From: Candidatus Nomurabacteria bacterium
GTDB lineage: Bacteria; Patescibacteriota; Minisyncoccia; Phycocordibacterales; UBA9973
Direction: 5' to 3'
Length of the DNA stretch: 59,217 nucleotides
NCBI GenBank assembly: GCA_943359485.1
Contig: CALRHR010000003.1
Coordinates: 1-59,217 of the forward strand
Shown in pieces: positions 3,599-56,001 of the stretch. A program made the position numbers and the translations under genes. Position 1 is the first letter of the stretch; every line of letters starts with the position of its first letter. Below the pieces are notes generated by a model, which saw only the letters and a list, made by a program, of their open reading frames with translations, was not told where the DNA came from and ran no database searches.

Positions 3599-6106
3599 TT
3601 ATTTAACTTCCTCTAAATTGTCCCCAAACCCAGAATGCACACTAAGCGGTATATCTGTTTTATAATGCAAATATGATCTTTCTAAAACACTTTCCATTGC
3701 ATTTTTTATTATTTTATCAGCTTTTTCTAAGATATTTTCTTCTACTTCGTATACTAACTCATCGTGTATTTGAAGTACAAGGTGAACTTTATCTAAAATC
3801 CCCATACTTTGCAAATCCTCTTCCACATATCTAATAGCTAGCTTGATGATGTCTGCAGTAGCAGTCCCCTGAATCGGTGCGTTAGTCGCAGTCCGCTCCG
3901 CCATACTTTTCAAAAAAGGAATTCTAGAATTTATATTCGGGAAATATCTGCGTCGACCAAATAAAGTTTCAGTGTAAGAATTTTTTAAAGCAAATTTTTT
4001 CGTTTCCTCTAAATACTCCTGCACACCGGAGAACTGCTGGAAATAATTGTCATAAAATTTCTGTGCTTCCTCCCGTGTACCACCCAGATTTTTCCGCAAA
4101 GAGGAAACCCCCATACCATAAATAATACCAAAATTTATAACTTTTGCCTTTCGACGCATTTCAGCATCGACTTTTTCTAAAGGAACCCCAAAAACAAAAG
4201 AAGCAACCCCCGCATGAATATCCTTTTTATCTCGAAAAATTTCTGTCATTTTTTTATCTCCCGAAAGCATCGCTGCCACCCGTAGCTCAATCTGACTATA
4301 ATCATACGCGCAAAGTTTATATCCTTTTTGAGCAACAAATCCTCCCCGAATTCTCTTGCCGAGTTCTGTCTTGATTGGTAAATTTTGTAAATTCGGATCC
4401 TGTGAAGAAAATCTTCCTGTTGTAGTATTGTTTTGTAAAAACTTGGCATGCAATCTTCCATCTTTATGAGTCATTTTAGGAATTACATCAATATAAGTAG
4501 AAAGTAGCTTCTGTAATTCTCGATAAGCCATAATTTCTTTGATAATTTCGTTTTCATCTTCTAATTCTTCTAAAACGGAAATTTTAGTAGAGAAATTGCC
4601 ACTTGCACTTTTCTTCGTTGATTTTCCCGGGGACTTGAGACCTAGTTTCCCAAAAAGAATCTCCCCTAATTGTTTGGGTGAATTTATATTAAACTCAGTA
4701 CCGGCCATTTTGTAAATTTCTTTCGTTAATTTATCTAATTCTCCATGGTATTCCTTTGAAAGCTTTTCAAAATATTTTTTATCTATCAGAATTCCATGGT
4801 CTTCCATTTCTTTTACTATGTGTATTATCGGTTGTTCTATTTCGCTGTAGACTTTATCCAACTTTTCCTCTTTTAATTTTTTAAAAATATATTCATAAGC
4901 TACATCAAATGAATCACTTCCAGCAAACATCAAAATGTCTCCTTGATTTGGGTTGCTTATGTCAGAATTTAGAAGCCATAATGCAATACTAGCTTCTTGG
5001 AGCTTGGTGGGGTCTGTTTCAAAATGCTGATTTTTAGAATTTTGGATTGGACTAGTTGGAATTTGGACCCCATGGTTTGGAATTACAGATTTCGAAAGGA
5101 TATCAGAAAATTCCGCTAAACCAGATTTTTCATTTTTGTTAAAAAAATTCTTTAGCCGCATAAACAAACTTCTAAACTCAAATTTCATGAACATTTGTTC
5201 TACCTTCTTTGGATCCGCATTTTCCCAAAACGACTTCTCTGGTATTTTAAAATCAATCGGTGCATCAGTACGAATCGTCGCTAAAGTTTTAGAAAAAATA
5301 GCCTCTTCTCGGCCTTCCTTTATTAGCTTTAGCATTCTATCTGTCAGGCCGACCCCGAGTAGGATCGAGGGGTTCTTATCTAATTGTTTATAAATCTCTT
5401 CTATCGTCCCAAAATTGACAATAAGGGTTTGCGCTGTTTTCTCCCCAATACCCTTTATCCCTTTAATGTTGTCTGACGGGTCTCCTCGCAAACCTTTGTA
5501 ATCCGGCAGGAGTTTGGGTCGAAACCCAAACCTTTCCACAACTTTTTCTTCATCATATAAAATAGTGTCGTTAATTCCTTTTTTCAAAGTATAAACTTGT
5601 ACTTTCTTGTCATCCACTAATTGCATTGTATCCATATCACCAGAAGCAATAATGATATTTAGACCCCCACCCAGCCTCCCCCTTAATAAGGGGGAGGTGT
5701 CAGAATGACGGAGGGGGTTCTTCATTTTCTCAACTATAGTCCCCAAAATATCATCTGCCTCAAATCCCGGCGCATCATAAATGGGAATATTGAACGCTTC
5801 GAAAATTTGCCGGGAATTTTTAAGCTGAGTGATAAGTGCCTCATCTGCCTTAATTCTCCCCTCTTTATACTCTTTATATGCTTCGTGCCGAAAAGTTTTC
5901 CCAGGCAAGTCATAACAAGCCACCATATAGTCCGGCTTGAGATCCGTCACGATTTTCATCAGCATACTGGAAAGTCCGTACAAGGCCCCTGTCGGCTCGC
6001 CTTTAGACGACAAGAACTCTGGCAAGGCATGATAAGCCCGGTGGATTATGGCATGAGCATCAAGCAATATTAAGGTTTTTTTCTTATCATTATTTTCTTT
6101 AGACAT
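3599..6106 (-). CDS. polA: DNA polymerase I
   Basis: 835 aa. N-terminal 5' nuclease domain (LILLDAHAIIHRAYHA, GFEADDILGT) and C-terminal family A polymerase motifs (DYSQIELR, QIHDELV). Confidence 0.95.
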   Translation of the reverse strand: MSKENNDKKKTLILLDAHAIIHRAYHALPEFLSSKGEPTGALYGLSSMLMKIVTDLKPDYMVACYDLPGKTFRHEAYKEYKEGRIKADEALITQLKNSRQIFEAFNIPIYDAPGFEADDILGTIVEKMKNPLRHSDTSPLLRGRLGGGLNIIIASGDMDTMQLVDDKKVQVYTLKKGINDTILYDEEKVVERFGFRPKLLPDYKGLRGDPSDNIKGIKGIGEKTAQTLIVNFGTIEEIYKQLDKNPSILLGVGLTDRMLKLIKEGREEAIFSKTLATIRTDAPIDFKIPEKSFWENADPKKVEQMFMKFEFRSLFMRLKNFFNKNEKSGLAEFSDILSKSVIPNHGVQIPTSPIQNSKNQHFETDPTKLQEASIALWLLNSDISNPNQGDILMFAGSDSFDVAYEYIFKKLKEEKLDKVYSEIEQPIIHIVKEMEDHGILIDKKYFEKLSKEYHGELDKLTKEIYKMAGTEFNINSPKQLGEILFGKLGLKSPGKSTKKSASGNFSTKISVLEELEDENEIIKEIMAYRELQKLLSTYIDVIPKMTHKDGRLHAKFLQNNTTTGRFSSQDPNLQNLPIKTELGKRIRGGFVAQKGYKLCAYDYSQIELRVAAMLSGDKKMTEIFRDKKDIHAGVASFVFGVPLEKVDAEMRRKAKVINFGIIYGMGVSSLRKNLGGTREEAQKFYDNYFQQFSGVQEYLEETKKFALKNSYTETLFGRRRYFPNINSRIPFLKSMAERTATNAPIQGTATADIIKLAIRYVEEDLQSMGILDKVHLVLQIHDELVYEVEENILEKADKIIKNAMESVLERSYLHYKTDIPLSVHSGFGDNLEEVK
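5664..5717. repeat. GC-rich hairpin element (family D) inserted in frame in polA
   Basis: CCTCCCCCTT-AAT-AAGGGGGAGG (5675-5697) within a GC-rich patch. It encodes ..RHSDTSPLLRGRLGGGL.. between the conserved EADD and SGDxD segments. Confidence 0.7.
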
Positions 6107-6144
6107 TATGTAAATTGTAGCATTTAAGGTACAATTTATGTATT

Positions 6145-7842
6145 ATGTTGGATTTTGACGATGAAAAGCAAAAAAAACAACTGGAGGACTTGTATAAACA
6201 AGAAGAAGAAGATCTGGTGGCAAGCTTAGCGGAATCAAAATATCATATTCCCTATATCAATCTCTATCAAGTAACCATAGACAATGAAGCCCTTCGCGCC
6301 ATATCAGAAAAAGATGCAACTGAAATGAATGTTGCACCTTTTAAGCTTTTTGGGAAAAATATTTATATTGCTATCCGTTCACCATCTCCCAATCTTTTTA
6401 AAACCCTTAAAGAAATAGCCGAGAGGCATGGTTTGGTTGCCAATTTTTACATGGCTTCAATGGCAAGCTTGAAAAAAGTCTGGGAAAGATATAGAGAGAT
6501 TTCCATGGCAGAAAGTTCACAGGTTGGAGGATTGGAAATTTCTGGAGAAGTTTTAAAAGAAATTGCAAAAAACATCAACCACATCCAAGATATTGAAAAA
6601 CTAGTAACAGAAGCATTGGAAGGAAATAAAATTCATAAAATTTCCAAACTACTTGAAATAATTTTAGCTGGAGCCATTGCCATAAAAGCCTCTGACATCC
6701 ACATTGAACCGGAAAAAGATAGAGGTAGACTACGACTTCGTTTAGATGGCATACTAACAGATATAAATTTCTTCGGATTGAATGTATACCATTTGCTCAA
6801 CTCTCGCATCAAGCTTCTCTCTGGTATGAAATTAAGTTCCAAAATAGCGCAGGATGGACGGTTTAGTATTATGAAAGGAGAAGAGGAATTAAATATTCGT
6901 ACTTCGCTGATTCCAGGAGCCTACGGCGAAAGTATCGTTATGCGTATCCTCGATCCAAAATCCATCCAAGTTCCGTTTGAAGAACTTGGCATTGAACCAT
7001 ACCTTTTTGAAATCGTCAAAGAAGAAATCGCCAAGCCAAATGGCATGATTTTGGTTACCGGTCCGACTGGATCCGGAAAAACCACCACCCTTTACGCATT
7101 TTTGAAAAAAATATATTCAACAGAAATAAATATCATCACCATCGAGGACCCGATAGAATACCATCTGCCCGGTATAACTCAAACCCAAATAAACCTCGAT
7201 AAGGGATACTCGTTCCCCGAAGGGCTCCGTTCTAGCTTGCGTCAAGATCCGGATGTAATAATGGTCGGAGAAATTCGTGACAGCGATACGGCAGATATAG
7301 CCGTGCAGTCTGCCCTCACTGGACACATGGTCTTCTCTACCCTTCACACCAACAATGCCGCCGGTGTTATCCCCCGACTCATCGATCTTGGAGTCAATCC
7401 AAAGATTATGGTTTCAGCGCTCTCTCTATCCATAGCTCAGCGTTTGGTCCGCAAGCTATGTAAATTTTGCAAAAAGGAATCTGACCCCAATGCAGATGAA
7501 ACTAAAAAAATACAACTTATCTTGGATGGTATGAAAATGGAAGGCAAAGATTTCTTAAAACACAATATTAACATAGATAAATCTTTTAAAATTTTTTCTC
7601 CCACGGGTTGTGAAAAATGCAATAACACAGGCTACAGTGGGCGTATTGGGATATTTGAAGCAATCCAAACAGACGAAACCATAGAAAAAATAATGCCAGA
7701 AAATCCAAGCGAAAGAGAAATAAAAAAAGTGGCAAGCAAACAAGGTATTTTATCTATGCGCCAAGATGGCATTGTAAAAATCTTAAACGGTATTACTTCA
7801 CTCGAAGAAGTGGCAAGTGTAGTGGATCTACAAGAAGAGTAG
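6145..7842 (+). CDS. pilB: GspE/PilB-family secretion/type IV pilus assembly ATPase
   Basis: T2SSE N-terminal domain, Walker A GPTGSGKTT, and Asp/His boxes. C-terminal tetracysteine CKFCKKE..CEKCNNTGYSGRIGIFE. Confidence 0.9.
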   Translation: MLDFDDEKQKKQLEDLYKQEEEDLVASLAESKYHIPYINLYQVTIDNEALRAISEKDATEMNVAPFKLFGKNIYIAIRSPSPNLFKTLKEIAERHGLVANFYMASMASLKKVWERYREISMAESSQVGGLEISGEVLKEIAKNINHIQDIEKLVTEALEGNKIHKISKLLEIILAGAIAIKASDIHIEPEKDRGRLRLRLDGILTDINFFGLNVYHLLNSRIKLLSGMKLSSKIAQDGRFSIMKGEEELNIRTSLIPGAYGESIVMRILDPKSIQVPFEELGIEPYLFEIVKEEIAKPNGMILVTGPTGSGKTTTLYAFLKKIYSTEINIITIEDPIEYHLPGITQTQINLDKGYSFPEGLRSSLRQDPDVIMVGEIRDSDTADIAVQSALTGHMVFSTLHTNNAAGVIPRLIDLGVNPKIMVSALSLSIAQRLVRKLCKFCKKESDPNADETKKIQLILDGMKMEGKDFLKHNINIDKSFKIFSPTGCEKCNNTGYSGRIGIFEAIQTDETIEKIMPENPSEREIKKVASKQGILSMRQDGIVKILNGITSLEEVASVVDLQEE

Positions 7843-13906: not shown

Positions 13907-15004
13907 CTACCGATTCATCGGCATGATGAGATAAGTAAAGGATGTGTCGGAAATGGGTGAGATGACTATAGGACTACCGGATCCAGAAAGTTTGATAGAC
14001 AAGCTGTCTGTGGTTATGGATTGGAAACAGTCTAAAAAATATTTATAATTAAAACCAAGTTCAACAGACTCCCCAGTTATAGCAGCATCCAAAACAGTTT
14101 TATTTTCTCCGATGTCATTGTTGGAAGATGAAAGTTGAAAAACTTTTTCTTTCGGTATGATTTTTAAATCAACCTGATTAAATTTATCTGAAAAGATATT
14201 AGAAAGTTTTAATGCATTTAGTAAATCTTGTTTTAATATCACCGCCTCAGTCGTAGAATTCTTTGGAATAATCTGCCTGTAGTCAGGGAAAACCCCATCA
14301 ATCACCCGTGAGGTTAAGTAAATATCTTCCGAAGAAAAAGAAATTTGGTTTTTACTAAAAAATACTTTAATAATTCCATTAAAATCACCAAAAACTCTTA
14401 ATATTTCAGAAATGTTTTTAAATGGGATTAATATACCTCCAATCTCAGGAAGACCTTTCACTTTAACTTTTTTCTCAGCCAATCTAAAAGAATCCGTAGA
14501 AACAAACACTAAGTTGTCTTCATAAGTATACAAAAAAACACTTGAAATCTCTGGCTTAATGTCAGAAATTGAAGCACTATAATAAACTGATTTTATTCCA
14601 TCAATTAGTTTCTTGGCTTCTATATCAAAACTTTCTCCTACTACCCTAGGGATGGTTGGGAAATCTTCATTGGGTTGTCCTTTTAATTTTATTTTACTTT
14701 TTTTAGTTTGAATTAATAAATTACCTTCAATCCCTTCGAGTTTAACAGTCTCATTTTGAAAAAAATTAGCAAAAGTATTATTCAACACAACTCCAGGAAC
14801 AGCCAATACTCCTTCTTGTTCAACTTTCGCAAGAATTTCTATTTCAATACCAAGACTAAGATTAGTAGATCTAAGTTTTAATGATTTACCAGATGCTACT
14901 AAAAGAATCGAGTTTAAAACCGGCAATGATAAATTTTTTCCAGTTACTCTTTCTGTTTGAGAAATTTTATTTTTAATTTCTTCTATTTTGCATTCTAATT
15001 TCAT
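13907..15004 (-). CDS. dnaN: DNA polymerase III beta sliding clamp
   Basis: 365 aa, three-domain clamp-like pattern, located immediately downstream of dnaA. Confidence 0.9.
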   Translation of the reverse strand: MKLECKIEEIKNKISQTERVTGKNLSLPVLNSILLVASGKSLKLRSTNLSLGIEIEILAKVEQEGVLAVPGVVLNNTFANFFQNETVKLEGIEGNLLIQTKKSKIKLKGQPNEDFPTIPRVVGESFDIEAKKLIDGIKSVYYSASISDIKPEISSVFLYTYEDNLVFVSTDSFRLAEKKVKVKGLPEIGGILIPFKNISEILRVFGDFNGIIKVFFSKNQISFSSEDIYLTSRVIDGVFPDYRQIIPKNSTTEAVILKQDLLNALKLSNIFSDKFNQVDLKIIPKEKVFQLSSSNNDIGENKTVLDAAITGESVELGFNYKYFLDCFQSITTDSLSIKLSGSGSPIVISPISDTSFTYLIMPMNR

Positions 15005-15210
15005 GTGTTTGTTTATATTTTCTATTTTAAATTTATTAATACTATTATTGGTGTGGATAAGTGGATAAACTATTTTATACTTATTTTATATGACTTTTTT
15101 GTTTAATTTGTTTTTAATTTTTGACTAATAACCTTCGTTTTATTTTAGATTAAATATTAGATTTCTAATTTTCTTTTGTTTTATTATTTTTTATCCCCAT
15201 AATTCTAACA
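15005..15210. promoter_or_regulatory. candidate oriC (dnaA-dnaN intergenic, DnaA boxes plus AT-rich tract)
   Basis: TGTGGATAA (15052-15060, perfect DnaA box in reverse complement) abuts AGTGGATAA (15060-15068). An extremely AT-rich ~140 bp follows. Confidence 0.6.
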
Positions 15211-16557
15211 CTATTTAAACATAATTCTAATTTGCTCTAATTCTTGTAATAACTGCGGGTCATTTTTAAGGTCTGCTTTTATTTTTAAACACGAGTGTAT
15301 AACAGTTGTATGATCTTTTCCGCCAAGCTTTTGCCCGATTAGTGGATATGATACATTAAAATCTTCTCGTAATAAATACATAACTATTTGTCTTGCTTTG
15401 ACGATTTCTTTTTTTCTAGTTTTTTCGTAAACAGAAGCCTCTTCTAATTTATAATGCTCACTGACTATTCTTACAACATCCTTTATTGCCATATTTTTCT
15501 TTGGTCGCATGTTGTTTTTGAGTAAAAGTTTTACTTCAGGGAGCGAAAGAGGTTTGTTCTTTAATTGGTACTGGCAAACTATGATATTCAGACTTCCCTC
15601 TAGCTCTCTAATATTACCTTCCACAGCTGAGGCGACATATTCTAAAACCTCTTTTTCCAAGGTAACATTCAATTCCCCTAATTTTACCTTTAAAATAGCT
15701 AGACGGGATTCATATTCTGGTGGAGAAATGTCTACAATCATACCGGCGGCAAAACGAGATTTTAGTCGGTCCGCCAGCTCTGGTATATAATTTGGGTGTT
15801 TATCTGAAGAAAAAATTATTTGTTTGTTGTTTTCATAAAAAGTGTTGAAGGTATGAAAGAGTTCTTCTTGGATTTTCTCCATTTTTCCGATAAATTGGAT
15901 GTCGTCGATGATAAGAAGGTCATACTTGCGATATTTTTCCTTAAATGAATTTGCTTTATTATTTTGTAATGAGTTAATAAAATCAGTCGCGAATTTTTCT
16001 AAAGTCATGTAATGCACTTTTTTGTTTGGATATTTTTGTTTGATTGAATTTCCTACAGCTTGAATTAAATGAGTTTTACCAAGTCCTGTACCTCCATAGA
16101 TGAAAAAAGGGTTGTATTTTGTACCAGGATTTTCAATAATCGCCTGTGAGGCGGCATAGGCAAGTTCATTAAAAGCTCCTACAATAAAAGAATTGAAGTG
16201 GTAGCGTGGGTTTAAGTTGTCTTCTTGATTTATATAAAGGTCTTTAAGTGGTAATTCTTTGTTGACATAAGTTTCATTGCTTATTATTGGAAGTTCTTCC
16301 TTAGTATTTTCTACTTTTGCAATAATGTATTCTACCGCCCGCATGTTTTCGTAGGTGTCAGCAATGGTTTTAGTAATTAGTTTATGGTATTTATTCATAA
16401 GCCAATCACGAACAAATTCATTTGGCACGCCGATATAAATAATACCTGTTTCCTCTCTTAAAATAGATGTGTTTTTAAACCAAGTGCTGAAGTTTGCTTT
16501 TGAAATACCTGTTTCTATTTCTGCTAAACAATTTTTCCAAAGTTGTTTTGGATTCAT
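15211..16557 (-). CDS. dnaA: chromosomal replication initiator DnaA
   Basis: AAA+ Walker A GGTGLGKTHL, Walker B LLIIDDIQF, and the C-terminal DNA-binding signature ..IGQKLGGKDHTTVIHS. Confidence 0.95.
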   Translation of the reverse strand: MNPKQLWKNCLAEIETGISKANFSTWFKNTSILREETGIIYIGVPNEFVRDWLMNKYHKLITKTIADTYENMRAVEYIIAKVENTKEELPIISNETYVNKELPLKDLYINQEDNLNPRYHFNSFIVGAFNELAYAASQAIIENPGTKYNPFFIYGGTGLGKTHLIQAVGNSIKQKYPNKKVHYMTLEKFATDFINSLQNNKANSFKEKYRKYDLLIIDDIQFIGKMEKIQEELFHTFNTFYENNKQIIFSSDKHPNYIPELADRLKSRFAAGMIVDISPPEYESRLAILKVKLGELNVTLEKEVLEYVASAVEGNIRELEGSLNIIVCQYQLKNKPLSLPEVKLLLKNNMRPKKNMAIKDVVRIVSEHYKLEEASVYEKTRKKEIVKARQIVMYLLREDFNVSYPLIGQKLGGKDHTTVIHSCLKIKADLKNDPQLLQELEQIRIMFK

Positions 16558-16624
16558 GATTTCATATTACACTATTAATTTTTGAAACCCAAGGTTAGAA
16601 AACTTACTAACTATGTTGATAATC

Positions 16625-16633
16625 TGTGGATAA
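16625..16633. promoter_or_regulatory. DnaA box upstream of dnaA
   Basis: Perfect TGTGGATAA 9-mer. Confidence 0.55.
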
Positions 16634-16634
16634 G

Positions 16635-16713
16635 ATAGGCGCTAGGCCCTAGGAAATTTAGGCGCTAGTTTTTTAAATTGCTAATGCCTAAAGCCTAGTT
16701 GCTTAATGCCTAC
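16635..16713. repeat. CTAGGC-type palindromic repeat (family C, copy 1)
   Basis: ATAGGCGCTAGGCCCTAGG..TTAGGCGCTAGTTTTTTAAATTGCTAATGCCTAAAGCCTAGTTGCTTAATGCCTAC. About 45 nt are near-identical to 25735-25782. Confidence 0.7.
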
Positions 16714-16735
16714 TTCTAATGTATATTAGAAGCAT

Positions 16736-16870
16736 ATGTCATTTACATATAAACCGAAAAAAAGAAAAAGAGCCAAGACTCATGGGTTTTTAGTTAGATC
16801 TAGAATCAAGACTGGCAAAAGAGTTATCAAGCGAAGGCGTCAAAAAGGTAGAAAAAAACTGACCGTGTAG
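16736..16870 (+). CDS. rpmH: 50S ribosomal protein L34 (not in the supplied ORF track)
   Basis: Hand translation gives [44 protein letters not shown]. Canonical position upstream of rnpA. Confidence 0.9.
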
Positions 16871-16875
16871 TTTTT

Positions 16876-17199
16876 ATGCTTCCTAAAAGAAACAGGGTAA
16901 ATAAAAAAGGTATAGACCTTATTTTTAAAACAGGCAAGCTTGTTATCTCCCCAAGCTTTACTTTTAAATTTATTAAAACAAAATTTTCAGCCGTGCAGAT
17001 TTCTTTTATTGTTCCTAAAAGTGTTGCCAAGTTTGCAGTTAAAAGGAATTTATTAAGAAGACTTGGATATAGAACACTAAGAAAATATATTTCTCAGTTC
17101 CCGACTGGGATAATGGGAGTGTTTGTTTTTAAAAAATATCAAGACAATATTTTAAATCTCGAAAATGAAATCAAAAACATATTTAGTAAAATTAATTAA
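16876..17199 (+). CDS. rnpA: ribonuclease P protein component
   Basis: Basic 107-aa protein (MLPKRNRVNKK.., ..AVKRNLLRRLGYR) in the conserved rpmH-rnpA-yidD-yidC order. Confidence 0.85.
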   Translation: MLPKRNRVNKKGIDLIFKTGKLVISPSFTFKFIKTKFSAVQISFIVPKSVAKFAVKRNLLRRLGYRTLRKYISQFPTGIMGVFVFKKYQDNILNLENEIKNIFSKIN

Positions 17200-17374
17200 T
17201 TTTTACCAAAAATTTATTTCCCCTGCTAATAAGTGTGTATTTTACCCATCTTGCTCTGAATACACGAAGCAAGCCATAGAAAAATACGGTTCATTAAAAG
17301 GAATCTGGTTGGGGTTTTCTCGTATTTTGCGCTGTCATCCTTGGCAGAAAAATTGTATTGATCCTTTGCGGTAA
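17165..17374 (+). CDS. yidD: membrane protein insertion efficiency factor YidD
   Basis: FYQKFISP..C.FYPSCSEYTKQAIEKYG..G..LGFSRILRCHPW signature. Confidence 0.85.
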   Translation: MKSKTYLVKLINFYQKFISPANKCVFYPSCSEYTKQAIEKYGSLKGIWLGFSRILRCHPWQKNCIDPLR

Positions 17375-17418
17375 TTATTTTTCTGGTGTTTTCCTACTTT
17401 TTCATATAGAATGAAGAA

Positions 17419-18171
17419 ATGCTAACAAGTATTTGGAATGCTGTTTTATATCAGCCTTTATTGAACGCATTGGCTTTCTTGGTTTCTATTATTCCCGGCG
17501 GGGATATTGGTTTTGCCATTATAATTCTTACTATTTTAGTGAAAATTATACTTTTCCCCCTTTCTCAAAAATCCATTCAAAGCCAGGCTGCCATGAACAT
17601 ACTCGCGCCTGAACTTGAAAAAATAAAAAAAAGTGGGACTTCCAAAGAAGAACAAGCGCGTCTAACTTTTGAGCTATACAAAACACACAAGACTAATCCG
17701 TTTTCTGGATGTTTATTGGTTTTAATCCAGATTCCAATAATTTTTGCACTCTATTATGTTTTTTTCAAAGGAATAAATTTTGAGGGTGATCTACTTTATT
17801 CTTTTATTCATGTTCCAGAAAAGGTAAATACGATGTTTTTGGGAGTTTTGGATATGGGTGGGAAAAGTTTAGTTTTAGCAGTCTTGGCAGGGGTATCTCA
17901 GTATCTACAAGCGTACTACATGCCTAAGCCAGTCTCCCCTACTCCAGTCGCTAATTCTACTCCATCTTTTGGAGAGACTTTTGGGAAAAGTATGAATATG
18001 CAAATGAAGTATGTTTTTCCATTTGTTGTTGCTTTCATTTCTTACACAATTTCTGGGGCAATTGCATTATACTGGATTACTAGTAATATATTTACTGTGG
18101 GACAACAAATCTATGTCGCTAGAGAAAAACCAAGAAATACCTTATTTGTAAAGGCTAAAATCAATGAATAA
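17419..18171 (+). CDS. yidC: membrane protein insertase YidC (short form)
   Basis: Multi-TM protein with ..ELYKTHKTNPFSGCLLVLIQIPIIFALY.. typical of YidC/Oxa1. Confidence 0.85.
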   Translation: MLTSIWNAVLYQPLLNALAFLVSIIPGGDIGFAIIILTILVKIILFPLSQKSIQSQAAMNILAPELEKIKKSGTSKEEQARLTFELYKTHKTNPFSGCLLVLIQIPIIFALYYVFFKGINFEGDLLYSFIHVPEKVNTMFLGVLDMGGKSLVLAVLAGVSQYLQAYYMPKPVSPTPVANSTPSFGETFGKSMNMQMKYVFPFVVAFISYTISGAIALYWITSNIFTVGQQIYVAREKPRNTLFVKAKINE

Positions 18172-18670
18172 AGATGAAATACAAAATTTAATAAAAGAAT
18201 TAGTGGAAAAGACTGGAGTCATGGCAACAGCGATTACCGTGAATAAAGAAACTGAGGTGAATACTTGGTTTAGAGTAGAAGTAAATGAGCCACATTTTTT
18301 TCTTGAGCGCGATGGTGAAGCGTTGCATGCTCTTAACCATCTTGTTCGTAGAATAGTGGAAAAACACCTCTCCCCAACCCCTCTCCTTGCCAAGGAGAGG
18401 GGCGAAGGGGTGAGGTCCGAGTTTGAGAACAATATTTTAATTGATATTAATGATTTTCAAAAAAAACGAGTAGAAAATATTCGTGCTGTGGCGCATATGA
18501 TGTCTGAGCGGGCAAGATATTTTAAATCAAGTATTGAAGTTGATCCAATGTCTTCTTTTGAACGAAGAGTTGTACACGAATTTTTATCTGATGCCACAGA
18601 TTTAAAGACCGAATCGGTCGGCTTTGGTCCAACTCGACGAGTGGTGATCAAATATATCGGGGCTATGTAA
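18164..18670 (+). CDS. jag: Jag/KhpB-type RNA-binding protein (KH + R3H)
   Basis: C-terminal R3H region ..MSSFERRVVHEFLSD.., and its position after yidC. Confidence 0.8.
   Translation: MNKDEIQNLIKELVEKTGVMATAITVNKETEVNTWFRVEVNEPHFFLERDGEALHALNHLVRRIVEKHLSPTPLLAKERGEGVRSEFENNILIDINDFQKKRVENIRAVAHMMSERARYFKSSIEVDPMSSFERRVVHEFLSDATDLKTESVGFGPTRRVVIKYIGAM
18365..18416. repeat. GC-rich hairpin element (family D) in frame in jag
   Basis: CACCTCTCCCCAACCCCTCTCCTTGCCAAGGAGAGGGGCGAAGGGGTGAGGT encodes HLSPTPLLAKERGEGVRS. Confidence 0.7.
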
Positions 18671-18671: not shown

Positions 18672-18786
18672 GAGTTTGGTCTGAAATCAAATTTTTTCGG
18701 TACGGATTTTTTGAAGCTTAAAAAATCCTGAAGTTCTCGGCTCGACAGCCTCGAAACCCCTTCAAAATTTATTTCAGACCAAACTC
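18672..18786. repeat. 115-bp element closed by a perfect 16-bp inverted repeat (bidirectional terminator, MITE or RNA)
   Basis: GAGTTTGGTCTGAAAT (18672-18687) pairs with ATTTCAGACCAAACTC (18771-18786). Inner hairpin GGATTTTTT-GAAGCTT-AAAAAATCC (18704-18728). Confidence 0.55.
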
Positions 18787-20133
18787 CCAAAGAAAAGAAT
18801 CTTTTTTGTTTACAAAAAATAGATAATTTTCGTTTTCATCGAGTGCGAGTTTGATTCCGTCAATTTCTTCTCCGCCCGGAGTCGTACTTGGGTCTATTAA
18901 GAGAGTAGTATTTCCATTTTTCAAATCTATTTTCCAAAGTTGGTCGGAGAAAGATACTTCTCCTTGATACCAGGCGTCCGGGTAAGCCCCAAAAGGAATA
19001 CTCGTCGGCACAGAGCAATATACAACATCACTGACCTTACCCCAGACACATTTTTCTGGCAGGGTTCCTACCCCCAGGGTTGTTGAGTTTCCATTTCCGA
19101 TGTCGTATGTATACAACGACAAATTATTGTCGCTATAAAGAATTGTTTTTCCGTCAGGACTCATGCGCGTGGTCAATCCATTTATGTTGCCCAAAATTTT
19201 AGATGGCATACCTTCGGCTGGACTTAATCTATATGCAAAACCCGGGACATTTGCAGAAGGTTTAGTAGAGAGAGTGATTGTCTTTTCAGTCCCCCACCAA
19301 GGACTCCATTCTGTGAAAACAGAATCAAAGATTTGAGTTTTTTTGTTATCCTTAAGATTTAAGGTTATTCCAACAATCCCATTTCCATTCTCAAATAAAT
19401 AGAATATTTTCGTTGTGTCTGGAGAAATACTCATGTCTAAAATATTCCTTCTCTGGAATTCCCCCTTAAATTTTGTATTTATTATATCTGCGCCCAGGTA
19501 TTCTTTTGGCAGGGAGCCGGCGAATGATTCTATTGTCTTTTCATCTGTCCCTAAATATCGCATAACCACTACCTCTCCGTGATTGCCGAAATAAGCTTCG
19601 TGCACTTTTGGGATTGTGATATCTAAGAATTTTCTTTCTTCGATTTTGTCTGCGAATGTTTGGAAAATATTTCCTGTTTCTCTCGCTACATATCTTAATG
19701 TCGTTGCAAATTCAGTTAATGGTGGGGTTGGTTTGGGCGTCCCAGTGCCGATTTTACTACCTTCTTGGGGTGAGGTTTCAACATCGGATGGGACAGTTTC
19801 AACAGCAGTCAATATCGGCATTGGGGCGACCAGTCTTTCTTTTTGATATGTTACAAATCCAGCGATGGGCTGACTTGAAACTTTTTTCAAGTTCACTACT
19901 TGTATTTCTCCTTCGGGGGGCGGAGTGTACCCCGATACATCTACAGGAGGTGTATCCACTTTAGGTTTCTGGCCACCAGTTCCAAAAGGATTAAATTGTG
20001 AAAAGAAATTTGTTCCGGTATTGTCTCCTGCGTCTGGAGTAGTTGCGTCAGGACGGAAATACAAAAACAAAGAAACGGAAACCATGATGATTACCAGAAT
20101 TATTATTAAAAGTGTAAAATTTCTTCTTTGCAT
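18769..20133 (-). CDS. membrane-anchored hypothetical protein with TolB/PD40-like beta-propeller features
   Basis: N-terminal TM segment, Pro-rich linker, and repeated motifs such as SPDGKTILYSDNN and SPDTTKIFY. Confidence 0.45.
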   Translation of the reverse strand: MQRRNFTLLIIILVIIMVSVSLFLYFRPDATTPDAGDNTGTNFFSQFNPFGTGGQKPKVDTPPVDVSGYTPPPEGEIQVVNLKKVSSQPIAGFVTYQKERLVAPMPILTAVETVPSDVETSPQEGSKIGTGTPKPTPPLTEFATTLRYVARETGNIFQTFADKIEERKFLDITIPKVHEAYFGNHGEVVVMRYLGTDEKTIESFAGSLPKEYLGADIINTKFKGEFQRRNILDMSISPDTTKIFYLFENGNGIVGITLNLKDNKKTQIFDSVFTEWSPWWGTEKTITLSTKPSANVPGFAYRLSPAEGMPSKILGNINGLTTRMSPDGKTILYSDNNLSLYTYDIGNGNSTTLGVGTLPEKCVWGKVSDVVYCSVPTSIPFGAYPDAWYQGEVSFSDQLWKIDLKNGNTTLLIDPSTTPGGEEIDGIKLALDENENYLFFVNKKDSFLWEFGLK

Positions 20134-20142
20134 AAATTTAAT

Positions 20143-21273
20143 TTAATCAAAAGCAGAAGCACAGATAGGAATATCTCCGCCCCACGCTATTCTTTGTCCA
20201 TTTCGGTAATTAAATAATATTTTTGCGACCGCTATATTTTGTGCTGGGTCTTTTAGGACTGCTACGCAGTCATTATACTTGTTTTCCATTCCAGATTTAA
20301 GTTTGGCATCATAATAAATTCTTCCACTTGAGTTTGTTTTTATGTAGTTTACTCCATTGATTGGAGAACCGTCAGTTAATGTAAATAAATTAGCACAAGA
20401 ATTTCCACTGGAATCTTTAACATAAACACCATTAGCTAATAAATTTATTTGGAATAAACCAAAAGAAAAAGACTTACCATCTGCGCCAACATCGGTTTGA
20501 CTTGATGAAGCTGGATTTCCGCCGCTTTCGATATTGCAAAGTTTTGACATACCTTCTGCTTTTGATCCAAAGGTGCTTAAATTTGCAGTGGCACAAGGTC
20601 CAGAAGTTACTGGAGTACAGCGTGCAATATTACCAGCTGTAACAGGTTTCTGGTATACACTATTTGCTTGTACACCAACCTCAAATGTTGCTGGAGTAAT
20701 TTTAATGTCAGTTTTGAGTAAATTAGGATTTATTGTGTAAAGAAGCGTATAAGCACCGAGAATTAAAATAATTCCGAGTAAAGCTCCTTGAATTCTGTCT
20801 TTACCATGCTCTTTGCTTGACACCAACTCACTTGTCATATACTCCATACCTCCTATGACGATCATTACCACTGCCAAAACTGCGCATAGACCAATAAATA
20901 GTTTTAGCATGAGGTTTAAATAATTTCCCAGTTGATCGCCTTTAGGGTCAAAAGTTTCCAAAATTCCATTTGGACATTTGGGACCGACTTCGCAGGGTAG
21001 TGGTGCTAGAAAAGTATATTTTGGATCTGCTGTGGTTGCTGCTGCTGGGGGGGGTGTAGATGTAGGTATAGGGCCATCCCAGCGGTATTCGTTTGGATAT
21101 TTTATACAATCTTCGTAAGATTTAGAAGGATTGACTGGATCGTTTGCTCTGCGGGTTCCTATTCCTGCTCTATAACGGCATACACCACCAACTTGTGCTT
21201 GTATCTTTTCGGTAATACCAAAAAAACTTATGAAGACAATTAATATGAGAATGTATGATGAAATTTTTTTCAT
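20143..21273 (-). CDS. T4SS pilin-like (TrbC/VirB2-type two-TM hairpin) protein fused to a lytic transglycosylase-like domain
   Basis: Signal peptide and central ..LFIGLCAVLAVVMIVIGGMEYMTS..GALLGIILILGAYTLLYTINPNLL. The C-terminus has CNIESGGNP..GLFQIN, an SLT-like ES..GLxQI motif. Confidence 0.55.
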   Translation of the reverse strand: MKKISSYILILIVFISFFGITEKIQAQVGGVCRYRAGIGTRRANDPVNPSKSYEDCIKYPNEYRWDGPIPTSTPPPAAATTADPKYTFLAPLPCEVGPKCPNGILETFDPKGDQLGNYLNLMLKLFIGLCAVLAVVMIVIGGMEYMTSELVSSKEHGKDRIQGALLGIILILGAYTLLYTINPNLLKTDIKITPATFEVGVQANSVYQKPVTAGNIARCTPVTSGPCATANLSTFGSKAEGMSKLCNIESGGNPASSSQTDVGADGKSFSFGLFQINLLANGVYVKDSSGNSCANLFTLTDGSPINGVNYIKTNSSGRIYYDAKLKSGMENKYNDCVAVLKDPAQNIAVAKILFNYRNGQRIAWGGDIPICASAFD

Positions 21274-22248
21274 TTAAAATTCTATACTTATTTCTTTATT
21301 TGTCGTCTGAAAAATTCTGTCCATATTTTCTATTACGAGCTTTAATTTAGATGTTCCAGAAACTCCATCTTGCACTTGTAGTGGCATAAAGTTTTTTCTG
21401 TAATTTGGCACAGGAACTGTGTTGTCGTTTATAGACCAATTCCATATTAGTCTAGGGTTCTGTAATTCTTTTGGTGAAATAAAATACGGAACGGCTTCCA
21501 CCACCTCTTTTCCTTCGATCCTGTATGGGTCGGTGAGCGCGTGTTCAAAGACGGTTCCCATTTTTGAATTATTTTTATAAAAGACTATTTTTGGTTCGGT
21601 TGTTGTTACATCCAGACTAGCTTCAGCTGTGAATTTTTGATCAGTTGTCGAAGCTACTACTCCTACATTGTTCGAATTTTCTAAATAGTCATTGGTATAA
21701 GTATAAGAGTTTTTACCATAACCAGAAGCTTCTTGGTCATTCGTGTAATCCTTCTTCCAGGTATAAGTCATATTTTTTGAGTTAACCAAACTTCCATCTA
21801 CACTGGTTTTTACTTCTGGCATGGCTATTACTTTTATTTCGCTGTCAGCTACAGGAAGAGCCTTGCCTTTGTAAAATGGTGGAACAAAAGAGTCTGTTGC
21901 TTGCCAGAGCAAGATCATCTCATTTGGTCGTATGGTTATAGTTTTTTCAAGTTCGCCTTCCGGTAAGGATATAAGAGCTCGGACACTGGAAAAACTTCCA
22001 GCTGGTGGAGCTTTTAATAAAAATGTTTTTTTGCCAACCCCAGATAAAATTACAGTGCCGTTAAGAGACCAACTTATTTGGACACTATCTAAATTGTTGG
22101 CATAACTTGACAGGGTTATGCTGATGTTTTCACCAGGCACCGGGTTAGGGGGCACCATATTTACTAAAATACTACTAGACGAAGCAGAAAAAACTTTTGT
22201 TGCGAACAATGTGAGCATTAAACACAATAATAAAAATTTAAATTTCAT
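21274..22248 (-). CDS. secreted hypothetical protein (beta-rich, Ig-like repeats likely)
   Basis: Signal peptide MKFKFLLLCLMLTLFATKVFS. No catalytic motif recognised. Confidence 0.45.
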   Translation of the reverse strand: MKFKFLLLCLMLTLFATKVFSASSSSILVNMVPPNPVPGENISITLSSYANNLDSVQISWSLNGTVILSGVGKKTFLLKAPPAGSFSSVRALISLPEGELEKTITIRPNEMILLWQATDSFVPPFYKGKALPVADSEIKVIAMPEVKTSVDGSLVNSKNMTYTWKKDYTNDQEASGYGKNSYTYTNDYLENSNNVGVVASTTDQKFTAEASLDVTTTEPKIVFYKNNSKMGTVFEHALTDPYRIEGKEVVEAVPYFISPKELQNPRLIWNWSINDNTVPVPNYRKNFMPLQVQDGVSGTSKLKLVIENMDRIFQTTNKEISIEF

Positions 22249-22259
22249 AACTCCTTTTA

Positions 22260-24110: not shown

Positions 24111-24116
24111 TGCATT

Positions 24117-24185
24117 CTAGGCTCTAGGCTCTAGGCTCTAGGCATTAGCATTGTGCTAGCGCCTAAGGCCTAAGGCCTAGCTGCC
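24117..24185. repeat. CTAGGC-type palindromic repeat (family C, copy 2)
   Basis: CTAGGCTCTAGGCTCTAGGCTCTAGGCATTAGCATTGTGCTAGCGCCTAAGGCCTAAGGCCTAGCTGCC. The arms are imperfect reverse complements. Confidence 0.75.
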
Positions 24186-24818: not shown

Positions 24819-24826
24819 AAATATTT

Positions 24827-24899
24827 CTAGGCTTTGGGCTCTAGGCGTTAGGCTTTAGCTTTTTTTGTGCTAGAGCCTAGTGCCTAAGGCCTAGCTGCC
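24827..24899. repeat. CTAGGC-type palindromic repeat (family C, copy 3)
   Basis: CTAGGCTTTGGGCTCTAGGCGTTAGGCTTTAGCTTTTTTTGTGCTAGAGCCTAGTGCCTAAGGCCTAGCTGCC. Confidence 0.75.
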
Positions 24900-25325: not shown

Positions 25326-25330
25326 AACGC

Positions 25331-25386
25331 AGGCTCTAGGCTTTAGGCGCTAGGCCCTAGTTGGACTAATTACTAGGTTCTAGCTG
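25331..25386. repeat. CTAGGC-type repeat (family C, copy 4)
   Basis: AGGCTCTAGGCTTTAGGCGCTAGGCCCTAG..ACTAATTACTAGGTTCTAGCTG. Confidence 0.7.
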
Positions 25387-25725: not shown

Positions 25726-25730
25726 GATAT

Positions 25731-25817: not shown

Positions 25818-25824
25818 TCCCTCA

Positions 25825-26526: not shown

Positions 26527-26530
26527 AATT

Positions 26531-27019: not shown

Positions 27020-27025
27020 AAATTT

Positions 27026-29362: not shown

Positions 29363-29368
29363 AATGTT

Positions 29369-34155: not shown

Positions 34156-34178
34156 CTAGTGCCTAGCGCCTAAAGACT
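34156..34178. repeat. CTAGGC-type repeat (family C, short copy 9)
   Basis: CTAGTGCCTAGCGCCTAAAGACTAATTACT between pcrA and rsmA. Confidence 0.55.
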
Positions 34179-53817: not shown

Positions 53818-56001
53818 ATGCAAAAAAAAGAATATAGTGTAGAGATAGGAGGGAAAACTTTAACTGCTATTTTTACTGACCTAGCAGAGCAAGCGCATGG
53901 TTCGGTGATGTTGAAATATGGAGAGACAGTAGTACTAGCAACTGTTTGTATGTCCAAGGATAGTCAAAAAGGTTTAGGGTTTTTTAATTTGACTGTGGAC
54001 TATGTAGAGAGGTTCTATGCGGCTGGGAAAATTTCTGGGTCTAAATTTGTGAAAAGAGAAGGTAAGCCAAGCGAAGACGCAATACTGGCGAGTCGTGTTA
54101 TCGACCGCACCTTGCGTCCACTTTTTGATCAGTCTATTCGTCATGCTGTGCAAGTTATTGTCACAGTAATATCTTTAGATGACAACGACTCTACTATTTT
54201 GGCCGTGAATGCAGCTTCACTTGCTCTTGCTGTGTCAAATATTCCTTGGGCGGGACCTATTGGCTGTGTACGAATTGGTAAATATGATGATGATACTCTA
54301 AAAATAAATCCTTCAAACAAATTGCGTGAAGATGATTCTCAATATAAATTTGACCTGACTGTTTGTGGTAAAGATGGAAATATAAATATGATTGAAGCTT
54401 CGGCTCATCAGACTCTTGAAACAGAAATAGAAGAAGCTCTCGAAAAAGCGAGTATGGAGATAGCAAAGCTCGAAGAATTTCAGAAAAAGATTGTCAAAGA
54501 GCTTGGTAAAGAAAAAAGAGTGATAGAAAAAATAGAGATAGATCCGCAGTCGGTGAAACTTTTTAACGAAAATATAATGCCTTCAATGGAAGGAGCTATT
54601 TTTACTGGTCCTGGAAAGAAAGAAATTGATGAGTTGCATAATGTTTGGAATAAGATGGTGAAAGACCATTATCCGGAGCGAGAAGACTTTGCTTTAGAAG
54701 ACAGTCTATTTGATGATACGGAAAATCATATTTTACACGAGAAAGCGATTAACGAAAATAAGAGAGCTGATGGAAGGGCGATGGATGAAGTTCGTGACCT
54801 GTATGCTCAGGCCGGGGGAGTGTCTACTGTGCTTCATGGTTCTGGTATCTTTTATCGTGGAGGGACGCATGTTCTTTCTGTTCTCACCCTCGGTGGTCCA
54901 GAAGATAGACACATGGTTGATGGTATGCAAACTAAATCTGAAAAAAGATTTATGCACCACTACAATTTTCCACCTTACTCTGGAGGAGAAGTAGGCAGAG
55001 CTGGATTTACCAATCGTCGAGAAGTTGGGCACGGAGCACTCGCAGAAAAAGCTCTTGCTATGGTGTTGCCAAGTTTGACAGATTTTCCGTATACCATACG
55101 AGTAGTTTCTGAATCAATGGCTTCCAACGGTTCTACTTCTCAAGCTTCTATCTGTGCATCAGTACTTGCATTGATGGATGGAGGAGTTCCAATACTTGCA
55201 CCAGTTGCGGGTGTCGCCATGGGGCTGATGTTGAGCGAAGCGAAATCCCGAGTACTTGAGGGACAAGAAAACACCTCACCCCAACCCTCTCCTTATAAAG
55301 GAGAGGGAGAAATTCTAAAGTACAAAATCCTTACTGACATCCAGGGCCCTGAAGATCATCACGGAGATATGGATTTTAAAATTGCTGGTACGAGATCCGG
55401 AGTCACTGCTATACAATTAGATGTCAAAGTGGAAGGTGTGCCAATAAAAATTTTAGGAGAAGCTATGAAGCAGTCAAAGAAAGCGCGTGTTACTATTATT
55501 GATAGAATTGAAAAAGAAATTAGCGTACCGAGGGCGGGAATTTCTCCAAATGCTCCGCAGATTTTGATTATTAAAATTGATCCAAATAAAATTGGCTTGG
55601 TTATCGGTGGCGGAGGTAAAACGATCAAAGAAATTAAGGAAAAGACTGGTGCTGAAGTTACTATTGAGGATGACGGCACTGTTTACTTTACTGGTAAGGG
55701 TAACTCGGCAGAGTTGGCGAAAAAAATTGTAGAAGAAATGACACATGAATATGCGGTGGGTGAGGTGATGAAGGGAGAGGTAGTGAAGATTGCTGATTTC
55801 GGTGCTTTTGTCCAGCTAAATGAATATACAGATGGTATGGTGCACATATCTGAAATTGCGCCATTTCGTGTAGAGCGAGTTTCGGATATAATAAAGGAGG
55901 GGATGATTGTGCCGGTAAAAGTGATCAAGGTGGATAAGGAAATGGGAAGAATAAGTTTATCGATTAAACAAGCTGATGACACCTTCTTTGGAAAAAAGTA
56001 A
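53818..56001 (+). CDS. pnp: polyribonucleotide nucleotidyltransferase (PNPase)
   Basis: Two RNase PH-like domains (..RADGR.., GDMDFKIAGT), a KH domain (GGGGKTIKEI) and an S1 domain (GEVVKIADFGAFVQL). Confidence 0.95.
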   Translation: MQKKEYSVEIGGKTLTAIFTDLAEQAHGSVMLKYGETVVLATVCMSKDSQKGLGFFNLTVDYVERFYAAGKISGSKFVKREGKPSEDAILASRVIDRTLRPLFDQSIRHAVQVIVTVISLDDNDSTILAVNAASLALAVSNIPWAGPIGCVRIGKYDDDTLKINPSNKLREDDSQYKFDLTVCGKDGNINMIEASAHQTLETEIEEALEKASMEIAKLEEFQKKIVKELGKEKRVIEKIEIDPQSVKLFNENIMPSMEGAIFTGPGKKEIDELHNVWNKMVKDHYPEREDFALEDSLFDDTENHILHEKAINENKRADGRAMDEVRDLYAQAGGVSTVLHGSGIFYRGGTHVLSVLTLGGPEDRHMVDGMQTKSEKRFMHHYNFPPYSGGEVGRAGFTNRREVGHGALAEKALAMVLPSLTDFPYTIRVVSESMASNGSTSQASICASVLALMDGGVPILAPVAGVAMGLMLSEAKSRVLEGQENTSPQPSPYKGEGEILKYKILTDIQGPEDHHGDMDFKIAGTRSGVTAIQLDVKVEGVPIKILGEAMKQSKKARVTIIDRIEKEISVPRAGISPNAPQILIIKIDPNKIGLVIGGGGKTIKEIKEKTGAEVTIEDDGTVYFTGKGNSAELAKKIVEEMTHEYAVGEVMKGEVVKIADFGAFVQLNEYTDGMVHISEIAPFRVERVSDIIKEGMIVPVKVIKVDKEMGRISLSIKQADDTFFGKK
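55272..55309. repeat. GC-rich hairpin element (family D) in frame in pnp
   Basis: CACCTCACCCCAACCCTCTCCTT-ATA-AAGGAGAGGG encodes ..NTSPQPSPYKGEGE.., just upstream of the conserved ILTDIQGPEDHHGDMDFK segment. Confidence 0.7.

Follow-up and report, generated by a model that had tools for sequence, protein, structure and literature searches.

The DNA considered here, 59,217 nt of a metagenome-assembled genome (MAG) of Candidatus Nomurabacteria (Patescibacteria, or Candidate Phyla Radiation, CPR) and referred to below as the window, is the only 59 kb of that genome visible to us. Within this AT-rich sequence (about 37% GC) lie five copies of a short, GC-rich palindromic element, each in frame within a conserved gene: one copy in polA, one in jag, two in rsmA and one in pnp. 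An original prediction had placed the five copies in these genes, and all of them were found there. By their Pfam matches the hosts are polA (DNA_pol_A with the 5'-3' exonuclease domains), jag (R3H; Jag follows directly after YidC), rsmA (RrnaAD) and pnp (PNPase), and the open reading frames (ORFs) are those of full-length PolA, Jag, RsmA/KsgA and PNPase. All five copies are read through without a stop in their host ORFs, again as predicted. To call the hosts essential genes goes somewhat too far: they are conserved housekeeping genes, and not all of them are strictly essential. No copy in the window is intergenic, though with a genomic coding density of about 90% the location of five of five copies in genes is no enrichment in itself.

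The copies are related to one another. The canonical pattern CCCTCTCCTTNNNAAGGAGAGGG matches the window three times, at 18379, 33501 and 55285, and the variant pattern CCTCCCCCTTNNNAAGGGGGAGG twice, at 5675 and 33444, whereas 100 dinucleotide-preserving shuffles of the window, searched with up to 3 mismatches, gave no match to either, so that the similarity is far above chance. As hairpins, these are three occurrences of CCCTCTCCTT-NNN-AAGGAGAGGG and two of CCTCCCCCTT-NNN-AAGGGGGAGG. A repeat search groups the copies as one direct-repeat family (D4) and joins the polA copy and the left rsmA copy by an inverted repeat (I1, 89% complementarity); neither this search nor a scan for GC-rich islands and short motifs found a sixth copy in the window. 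Rfam gave no RNA family at the copies, its matches in the window being four tRNAs only. All five copies have a three-block layout with loops of 1-6 nt (class II): a pyrimidine block, a complementary purine block and, usually 3 nt downstream, a second G-rich block that mirrors the purine block, with G opposite G and A or T opposite A. The arm that flanks the hairpin (ACCTCACCCC / GGGGTGAGGT) is this third block, mirroring the purine arm under the rules for purine-motif triplexes. The exception in layout is the + strand reading of the polA copy, where the second loop is longer and contains a mini-hairpin.

The limits of the copies could be refined somewhat. The pnp copy, the basic 39-nt unit, occupies 55273-55311, with the gene on the + strand and the G-rich class II reading on the - strand, and encodes residues 486-498, TSPQPSPYKGEGE; its blocks are ACCTCACCCC (55273-55282), AA, CCCTCTCCTT (55285-55294), the loop ATA, AAGGAGAGGG (55298-55307) and AGAA (55308-55311). 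In rsmA two sequence variants, the CCTCCCCCTT type and the CCCTCTCCTT type, stand tail to tail as an inverted pair, in the linker that joins the methyltransferase domain to the C-terminal domain. The left copy (33442-33479), of the variant type and with its G-rich class II reading on the + strand, encodes SSPPPNLPLVKGEG on the - strand and is made up of CCTCCCCCTT (33444-33453), the loop AAC, AAGGGGGAGG (33457-33466), the spacer TTG and the third block GGAGGGGGT (33470-33478). The right copy (33489-33526), of the canonical type and with its G-rich reading on the - strand, encodes PPLLDKERAGVRF and is made up of ACCTCACCCC (33489-33498, the complement of the third block), CCCTCTCCTT (33501-33510), the loop ATC and AAGGAGAGGG (33514-33523). 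The other two copies are double-sided. In jag, on the + strand, the copy at 18366-18416 is 51 nt (17 codons) long, encodes residues 68-85, HLSPTPLLAKERGEGVRS, and has the arms ACCTCTCCCC (18366-18375) and GGGGTGAGGT (18407-18416) on either side of the hairpin CCCCTCTCCTT-GCC-AAGGAGAGGGG (18378-18402). In polA, on the - strand, the copy at 5663-5718 encodes residues 131-148, PLRHSDTSPLLRGRLGGG, its blocks being ACCCCCACCC (5663-5672), CCTCCCCCTT (5675-5684), the loop AAT, AAGGGGGAGG (5688-5697), the mini-hairpin GTCAgaaTGAC (5699-5709) and GGAGGGGGT (5710-5718); on the - strand its third block is GGTGGGGGT, with 9 allowed triads. The unit is about 36-39 nt long, and the double-sided forms 51-56 nt. 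As single strands all of these sequences fold far better than their shuffles: the polA copy at -20.3 kcal/mol (z -5.7), the jag copy at -19.7 kcal/mol (z -4.8), the rsmA pair, as three hairpins, at -28.4 kcal/mol (z -5.1) and the pnp copy at -10.5 kcal/mol (z -4.6). The term hairpin element is apt as far as this folding goes, but the third block makes the element more than a hairpin.

Is the arm a conserved flank, or is it part of the motif itself? In all pyrimidine/purine hairpins of the DNA fetched for comparison a downstream block was sought in antiparallel register, with the parallel rule as control. At least 90% allowed triads (G·G-C, A·A-T and T·A-T) were found in antiparallel register for 153 of 201 canonical and 23 of 60 variant hairpins, and under the parallel rule for 7 and 8, respectively; each copy in the window has 9 allowed triads (9 of 10 in the left rsmA copy). 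The hairpins comprise 19 distinct variants of the purine block, and to each belongs a third block that matches it, with a 3-nt loop before it in nearly all cases. The variant copies of the window obey the rule: the block after AAGGGGGAGG is GGTGGGGGT in polA and GGAGGGGGT in the left rsmA copy. So does the canonical AAGGAGAGGG, with GGGTGAGGT after it (as in the form CCCTCTCCTT-tat-AAGGAGAGGG-ttg-GGGTGAGGT); the terminal T of GGGTGAGGT fits the extra A-T pair that sets this lineage apart from Escherichia coli. The fit to the mirror rule argues that the arm is the third strand of a motif, and the rule together with the covariation across the 19 variants identifies the element as BoxC/PIT/TMECO.

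This family has been described by Bachellier et al. in the 1990s, by Hoyne and Maher (2000) and by Holder et al. (2015; NAR 43:10126, PMC4666352). In E. coli K-12 the motif CCCTCTCCC-tgt-GGGAGAGGG-cc-GGGGTGAGGG, named first BoxC, then PIT and then TMECO, is present 23 times; it forms a class II purine-motif intrastrand triplex in vitro according to circular dichroism (CD) and NMR data. More than 260 genomes contain it, and Enterobacteria and cyanobacteria have it especially often (PMC4666352). The copies in the window are co-linear with four of the E. coli TMECO sequences (Table 1 of PMC4666352), as the pair GGAGAGGGTTGGGGTGAGGT and GGAGAGGGTCGGGGTGAGGGT illustrates, and in a BLAST search the pnp unit had matches of 83-90% identity in 3416 of 5426 complete E. 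coli genomes, at places where no feature is annotated. Taking the explanation as a whole, we think it probable that the five copies belong to the BoxC/PIT/TMECO family of G/C-rich, three-block intrastrand triplex motifs. By analogy with E. coli, the single-stranded Nomurabacteria copies would fold as a hairpin plus a third, reverse-Hoogsteen strand.

What makes the copies insertions, and not ancestral parts of their proteins? In alignments the distant orthologues with solved structures and most of the close relatives have short loops where the copies lie, and the distant lineages have no homologous peptides at the same positions, so that the prediction of insertions stands. In PNPase, residues 473-500 stand in place of a 3-residue turn of the solved structures. 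Among 120 relatives of at least 78% identity, the loop is empty (YESDDK, as in LMYESDDKYK) in 62, contains TSPQPSPYKGEGE in 16 and has other inserts in the remainder. At the DNA level two orthologues, L124 and L206 (such L-numbers are our labels for compared loci from other genomes or contigs), have exactly 39 bases more than ten empty ones, ACC TCA CCC CAR CCC TCT CCT TAT MAA GGA GAG GGR GAA. The pnp gene of the window is the L204 allele plus the same 39 bases, three codons ahead of the conserved TAC AAA, and the 39-nt difference is thus seen in two allele backgrounds at the same codon. Beside the unit lies an older, different insert, LSEAKSRVLEGQEN (55231-55272, + strand), which matches L204 codon by codon and is homologous to the AKSR...GQ alleles of relatives; its kin, a class of 20-30 residues with the form AKSR...LPFA.AQGQNLE, occurs in 19 of the 120 relatives. 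Since the 39-nt unit sits at the 3' edge of this insert, the pnp site holds nested or successive insertions.

The same unit with the same limits is met elsewhere. Contigs of three metagenomes stack on the window only over 55278-55304, at a depth of 168-226 compared with a baseline of 14.7, and in unrelated contigs from lake metagenomes the similarity ends at 55273/55274 and at 55309-55311, which are the boundaries of the indel. The rsmA gene of another genome (L235) holds the 39-nt pnp unit with 38 of 39 bases identical, and the TSPQPSPYKGEGE peptide recurs in PNPase and RsmA of several genomes. The PNPase of the window is itself found, with unchanged sequence, in GCA_965045245.1, in a 150-kb ENA contig and in a Logan contig, and its nearest relatives carry the names Candidatus Nomurabacteria, Paceibacterota or Patescibacteria. 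When RNA-seq evidence was sought, the only sequencing runs containing the sequence were lake-water and freshwater metagenomes, with DNA contigs only.

The other three proteins tell a similar story. Residues 197-238 of RsmA correspond to 11 residues in Bacillus subtilis KsgA, and the linker is short (IFEENKIDEEK, for example) in about half of 120 relatives. In Jag the segment is absent from the shortest relatives (153 aa) and variable in others, many of which have LSPTPLLxKERGEGVRS. Neither Mycobacterium smegmatis Pol I nor Taq Pol I has the 16 residues PLRHSDTSPLLRGRLG of PolA. Of 80 representative relatives 78 lack them too, and two have different, longer inserts in the same loop. The original prediction expected surface loops, and this is what AlphaFold models suggest: in RsmA (mean pLDDT 84) residues 211-234 are below 50 and have no secondary structure, between a strand at 191-197 and a helix at 240-250, and in PNPase (mean pLDDT 72.9) residues 475-499 are below 50, between strands at 464-476 and 499-506. 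The PDB orthologues of PNPase, PolA and RsmA are without these segments. Judged from aligned sequences and predicted structures, the five copies are confirmed as derived, in-frame insertions that would add disordered loops of 13-18 residues.

The motif is not confined to this lineage. A scan for the 23-nt hairpin with one genome per species gave at least 120 matches; among the matches listed are many Nostocales cyanobacteria, in which the hairpin is most abundant, many classes of Patescibacteria, Ignavibacteria, Bacteroidota, Armatimonadota, Chloroflexi, Leptospirales, Bdellovibrionales and Proteobacteria, and two Bathyarchaeia MAGs. The triplex motif is also carried by 28 IMG/VR viral contigs, in contrast to the lack of phage association of the E. 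coli motif (PMC4666352). An arm lies within 45 nt of the hairpin in 136 of 138 copies from other phyla, as (A)CCTCACCC on one side or GGGTGAGG on the other; 42 of the 138 have both arms and 94 have one only. The base that precedes the arm is A in 96% of the copies, and the sequence farther out is random. Of the copies, 11 of 32 in Patescibacteria, 7 of 76 in cyanobacteria and 6 of 47 in other phyla lie in ORFs of at least 200 codons; in the window four of the five do, and the fifth, in jag, is coding too, in an ORF of 172 codons. The motif is a discrete unit, present or absent at orthologous sites of close relatives and found in different genes of different genomes.

In several genomes the motif forms dense local clusters, with 3-4 copies per about 1 kb at irregular spacing (L020, L038 and L120 are among these loci); examples are L006 at 2118-3030 and L028 at 260-958 (Bacteroidota MAG JPMR_metabat.90). 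A 7.3-kb viral contig (L208, IMG/VR UViG_3300048592_001291) has five copies at 1908-7239, some of them in ORFs of 165-538 codons. In Nostoc, motifs are sometimes embedded within longer repeats.

Which known kind of mobile element might behave in this way? One might think of ordinary hairpin elements, either MITEs (miniature inverted-repeat transposable elements) or repetitive extragenic palindromes (REPs) and REPINs, with the ACCTCACCCC / GGGGTGAGGT arms as terminal inverted repeats and a transposase acting in trans (RAYT, IS200/IS605 TnpA or DDE) from elsewhere in the genome. The double-sided copies in polA and jag do have complementary outer arms that pair, the A before the arm in nearly all copies is a sharp 5' boundary, and inverted pairs such as that in rsmA look like REPIN doublets; furthermore, a visible genome of 59 kb leaves room for a distant transposase. 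An arm that is single in 94 of 138 copies, however, cannot serve as a terminal inverted repeat, and we rejected this role for the arms, which obey the mirror rule over 19 variants as no terminal-repeat model would predict. There is neither a target-site duplication nor a GTAG or CGTC tag at the flanks, and TMECO is unassociated with transposons in the literature (PMC4666352). Nor did an enzyme turn up: among 133 ORFs within 500 nt of copies, which matched 207 Pfam families, no family occurred in more than two ORFs and no transposase was enriched, and the genes of the window include none, the sole integrase-type gene being XerC/D-like. We regard an origin as MITEs or REPINs as unlikely.

A second alternative is that nothing has moved. 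The loops of these proteins are indeed hypervariable. Relatives of the PNPase that are about 83% identical overall fall into at least five loop classes. The RsmA linkers of relatives contain TSPQPSPYKGEG, the PPLLDKERAGVRF...PPPNLPLIKGE pair, NSPLEEYPLGGGG...STPSRKRATPQEGN and others, sometimes nested, and their Jag loops contain other palindromic peptides such as DHRSDLGESPRSDLW and TPKTVIGDSPMTVFG (alignments of the proteins P0122-P0240, P0242-P0360, P0361 and P0375, relatives of RsmA, Jag and PolA). Palindromes might, then, be made in place by slippage, template switching or error-prone repair and be passed on by gene conversion or allele recombination. The occurrence of at least five unrelated insert classes in the same PNPase, RsmA and Jag loops of close relatives fits such a scheme, as does the scatter of the carriers of one class over the tree; and the E. 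coli motif marks unstable loci, a link between triplex motifs and local instability (PMC4666352) with which the hypervariability of the loops agrees. What this scheme accounts for badly is the sharing of sequence. A 39-nt sequence of one gene recurs, 38/39 identical, in a different gene of a second genome; contigs that are unrelated have it in common up to the same sharp limits; and the same three blocks are found in E. coli, cyanobacteria, Patescibacteria, archaeal MAGs and viral contigs. Moreover, template switching yields inverted or direct repeats, not mirror repeats with A-to-T substitutions. Local origin without mobility is therefore, in our judgment, improbable. Several different GC-rich palindromic families repeatedly colonise the same loops in related genomes, and in-frame colonisation seems general in this lineage.

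Is it the peptide or the DNA that is conserved? Within this window the same core is read in frames 0, 1 and 2, giving PSPYKGEG in pnp, PLLxKERG or LPLVKGEG in jag and rsmA, and SPLLRGR in polA. In the pnp orthologues substitutions fall at the codons of loops and spacers (Y to E/D, Q to R/H/E), and the stems are fixed. With three frames in use and fixed stems, the conserved object is, on the evidence of these comparisons, the nucleic acid, DNA, and not the peptide. This bears on a further alternative, in which the inserted peptides are selected functional modules, such as proline-rich interaction or localisation motifs, and the palindrome is incidental. In its favor, TSPQPSPYKGEGE is recurrent in PNPase and RsmA of several genomes and the inserts are kept in intact, conserved genes. 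But the peptides from the three frames are unrelated, it is the stems and not the amino acids that are conserved, copies elsewhere are mostly intergenic, the inserts are predicted to be disordered and about half of the close orthologues have none, so that selection for peptide function is very improbable. Weakest of all is the thought that the segments, as GC-rich hairpins in an AT-rich genome that resemble mitochondrial GC clusters and bypass elements, are removed from the mRNA or bypassed by the ribosome in the manner of yeast mitochondrial 'byp' elements or T4 gene 60: all five copies and all orthologous copies seen are whole codons without stops, a constraint that skipped segments would not need, and no pairs of take-off and landing codons are evident, which makes it scarcely credible. 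We also considered that the element might be stop-free in all six frames by construction; this was toned down, because the stems are without stops but there are stops in loops and a TGA in GGGGTGAGG.

How would a triplex motif come to reside in a gene? We suppose that the copies entered genes as insertions. In a compact genome with little intergenic space, the survivors would be those that add a multiple of three bases, bring no stop into the frame that is read and lie where a loop or linker is permissive; they would then be transcribed and translated as unstructured peptides rich in Pro, Gly, Ser, Glu and Lys that the enzyme tolerates. As for movement, a structure-dependent route through single-stranded DNA, using host replication or repair functions, appears to us the most likely, since purine-motif triplexes do not form in RNA (PMC4666352) and the hallmark of the element is the fold of one DNA strand. 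On balance the host is probably unaffected or slightly harmed, and a likely side effect is local instability that renders the colonised loops hypervariable.

Several observations weigh against the reading of the copies as mobile triplex motifs. Triplex formation has gone undetected in vivo in E. coli (PMC4666352), and the triplex structure may matter transiently, or not at all. The flanks of the copies show no target-site duplication and no conserved target beyond the A at -1, and patterns of presence and absence are all that suggests mobility. In pnp the flanking codons also differ between filled and empty alleles, and what first happened there may not have been as simple as a clean insertion of 39 nt. 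The carriers of the pnp unit form no clade, with a mean distance of 0.171 among carriers and of 0.172 overall, a scatter that would fit all three of repeated insertion at one codon, allele recombination and a star-like tree. Per unit, 2-5 of the 6 frames are open, only a modest surplus over the mean of 3.0 in random windows, and translation of the inserts is suggested by their intact frames. As to the descent of the carriers, 5 of the 16 have a nearest neighbor in the same state, where 2 would be expected; a single ancient, vertically inherited insertion in pnp was considered and finds no support, because carriers are no closer than random pairs. The tree is star-like, however, and would suit repeated insertion and allele recombination alike.

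A bolder proposal, which we hold tentatively and would not call likely, is that BoxC/triplex motifs are pan-prokaryotic mobile DNA without an enzyme of their own. A single strand of about 39 nt, folded up as a unit, would insert into bacteria, archaea and phages by way of host replication or repair and would then destabilise the colonised site. If this were true, the motifs would generate hypervariable surface loops in highly conserved enzymes of the compact Patescibacteria, and the exact empty and filled sites would be a first handle on the mechanism of insertion.

A few other features of the region deserve mention. The genes of the window include dnaA-dnaN, rnpA-yidC-jag, ruvBC, a type IV secretion-like block, uvrD, four tRNAs and the XerC/D-like integrase. 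At 13907-18670, dnaN, dnaA, rnpA, yidC and jag make up a neighborhood of the replication-origin type, and the minimum of the cumulative GC skew lies away from dnaA, near 37-38 kb. The block at 18769-32191 consists of large genes without Pfam matches and resembles a type IV secretion or conjugation-like system, with a TraG/VirB4-like P-loop ATPase at 22260-24110 and a PrgI-like protein at 24891-25325; a gene for a 23S rRNA intervening-sequence protein (25366-25725) sits within it. The window has a second family of repeats, made up of heptamers in tandem, (C/T)TAGGCN; the pattern CTAGGCNNTAGGC has 27 matches where 0.33 are expected, and the arrays lie at 16635-16698, 24117-24180, 24827-24894, 25336-25355, 25757-25812, 26530-26610, 33244-33270, 33832-33858 and 34161-34173. 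Opposed arrays in spacers between genes of the type IV secretion-like block make long hairpins (-42 kcal/mol, z -5.2), and one array within rsmA encodes ASAYSLKPSAYK, which is common to many orthologues. These arrays recall the STRR heptamers of cyanobacteria. RsmA varies at two further places: residues 93-104 (window 33826-33870), where some orthologues have inserts of 20-60 residues that include PLPLIRGGLGRGE...SPLLRGKG, and residues 150-156, where a GC-rich island at 33672-33711 encodes PRHGGAG with a pLDDT below 50 in the model. Among RsmA, Jag and PolA relatives there are further palindromic inserts, PPLLVEEGVGGGDSK...PPRPSGTPPQKGGE and, in a PolA relative, IPAKAGIQ...LDPVLRRGD.

BoxC/PIT/TMECO has been known for about 30 years, and its origin, function and spread are unexplained in the literature. 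What do copies within genes add? Codon-resolved empty and filled sites give exact boundaries and so define a 39-nt unit, and three frames with conserved stems test what is selected and point to the nucleic acid. The copies are also a natural experiment in tolerance, showing where PolA, PNPase, RsmA and Jag have loops that accommodate 13-30 additional disordered residues. In the literature searched we found no report of triplex motifs in frame within genes, or in Patescibacteria, nor of in-frame palindromes or of elements like those of Rickettsia in Patescibacteria. New here is the presence of a known triplex-motif family in frame in Patescibacteria genes, with exact sites of both the empty and the filled kind, and the concept of selfish DNA in protein-coding genes is thereby extended from Rickettsia to Patescibacteria. 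Our observations suggest that part of the unusual variation in protein length in the CPR stems from several families of GC-rich palindromic repeats. When CPR genomes are aligned, placed in phylogenies or clustered by protein family, such inserts can lead the analysis astray.

The comparison with Rickettsia palindromic elements (RPEs; Ogata et al. 2000), drawn in the original prediction, is a fair analogy of behavior but not a statement of membership. In both cases palindromic repeats lie in frame in conserved genes of a small, AT-rich genome, are exposed on the protein surface as extra peptides that are tolerated, and encode no transposase. RPEs are about 105-146 bp long and restricted to Rickettsia (PMC3184786); the units of the window, at 38-56 nt, in Patescibacteria and with a three-block triplex motif found across phyla, are set apart by length and host, and a relationship by sequence is not to be expected. 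With the REP/REPIN-RAYT systems the motif shares short, GC-rich, non-autonomous palindromes, often in inverted doublets. It differs in that its third block follows the mirror rule rather than being part of the hairpin, its flank logo has no GTAG/CGTC tag but only the A at -1, and no Y1 transposase or RAYT is found among the genes of the window or the 133 neighboring ORFs. The terminal inverted repeats and target-site duplications of MITEs are likewise missing from the one-armed copies and their flanks.

Small dispersed repeats (SDRs) of 21-27 nt, hairpins that are said to be abundant in Nostocales and were reportedly described by Elhai and colleagues in 2008 from Nostocaceae only, reportedly occur nested, within coding regions and beside tandem heptamer repeats. 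Going by that description, they resemble the present case in that the 23-nt hairpin core is most abundant in Nostocales and the window also has heptamer arrays, and it is possible that the Nostoc SDRs overlap with the triplex motif. The GC clusters and bypass elements of yeast mitochondria are another instance of GC-rich, palindromic, mobile units that invade the genes of an AT-rich genome. They are organellar, unrelated in sequence and, in some species, bypassed in translation, whereas the frames in the window are intact.

The closest likeness remains that to BoxC/PIT/TMECO itself. The order and spacing of the blocks are the same (pyrimidine block, short loop, purine block, loop of 2-4 nt, G-rich mirror block), and the sequence is nearly identical, CCCTCTCC...GGAGAGGG..GGGGTGAGG. 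In both, stems are conserved and loops variable, the copies are dispersed without linked mobile-element genes, and the colonised loci vary locally. Five E. coli sites are inverted pairs of two sequence types (PMC4666352), as is the rsmA pair at 33442-33526. The E. coli motif is without promoter or terminator activity, and its copies are always intergenic and are unassociated with transposons, phages or plasmids (PMC4666352), whereas the copies in the window are all in frame within genes; intergenic location describes E. coli rather than defines the structure. The stems in the window are slightly more AT-rich, with CCTT/AAGG ends and a third block that ends in T, but all three blocks have shifted together and the triads are preserved. 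Finally, the host here is a member of the Patescibacteria, with further copies in archaeal MAGs and viral contigs, and it is here that exact empty and filled sites delimit the unit.

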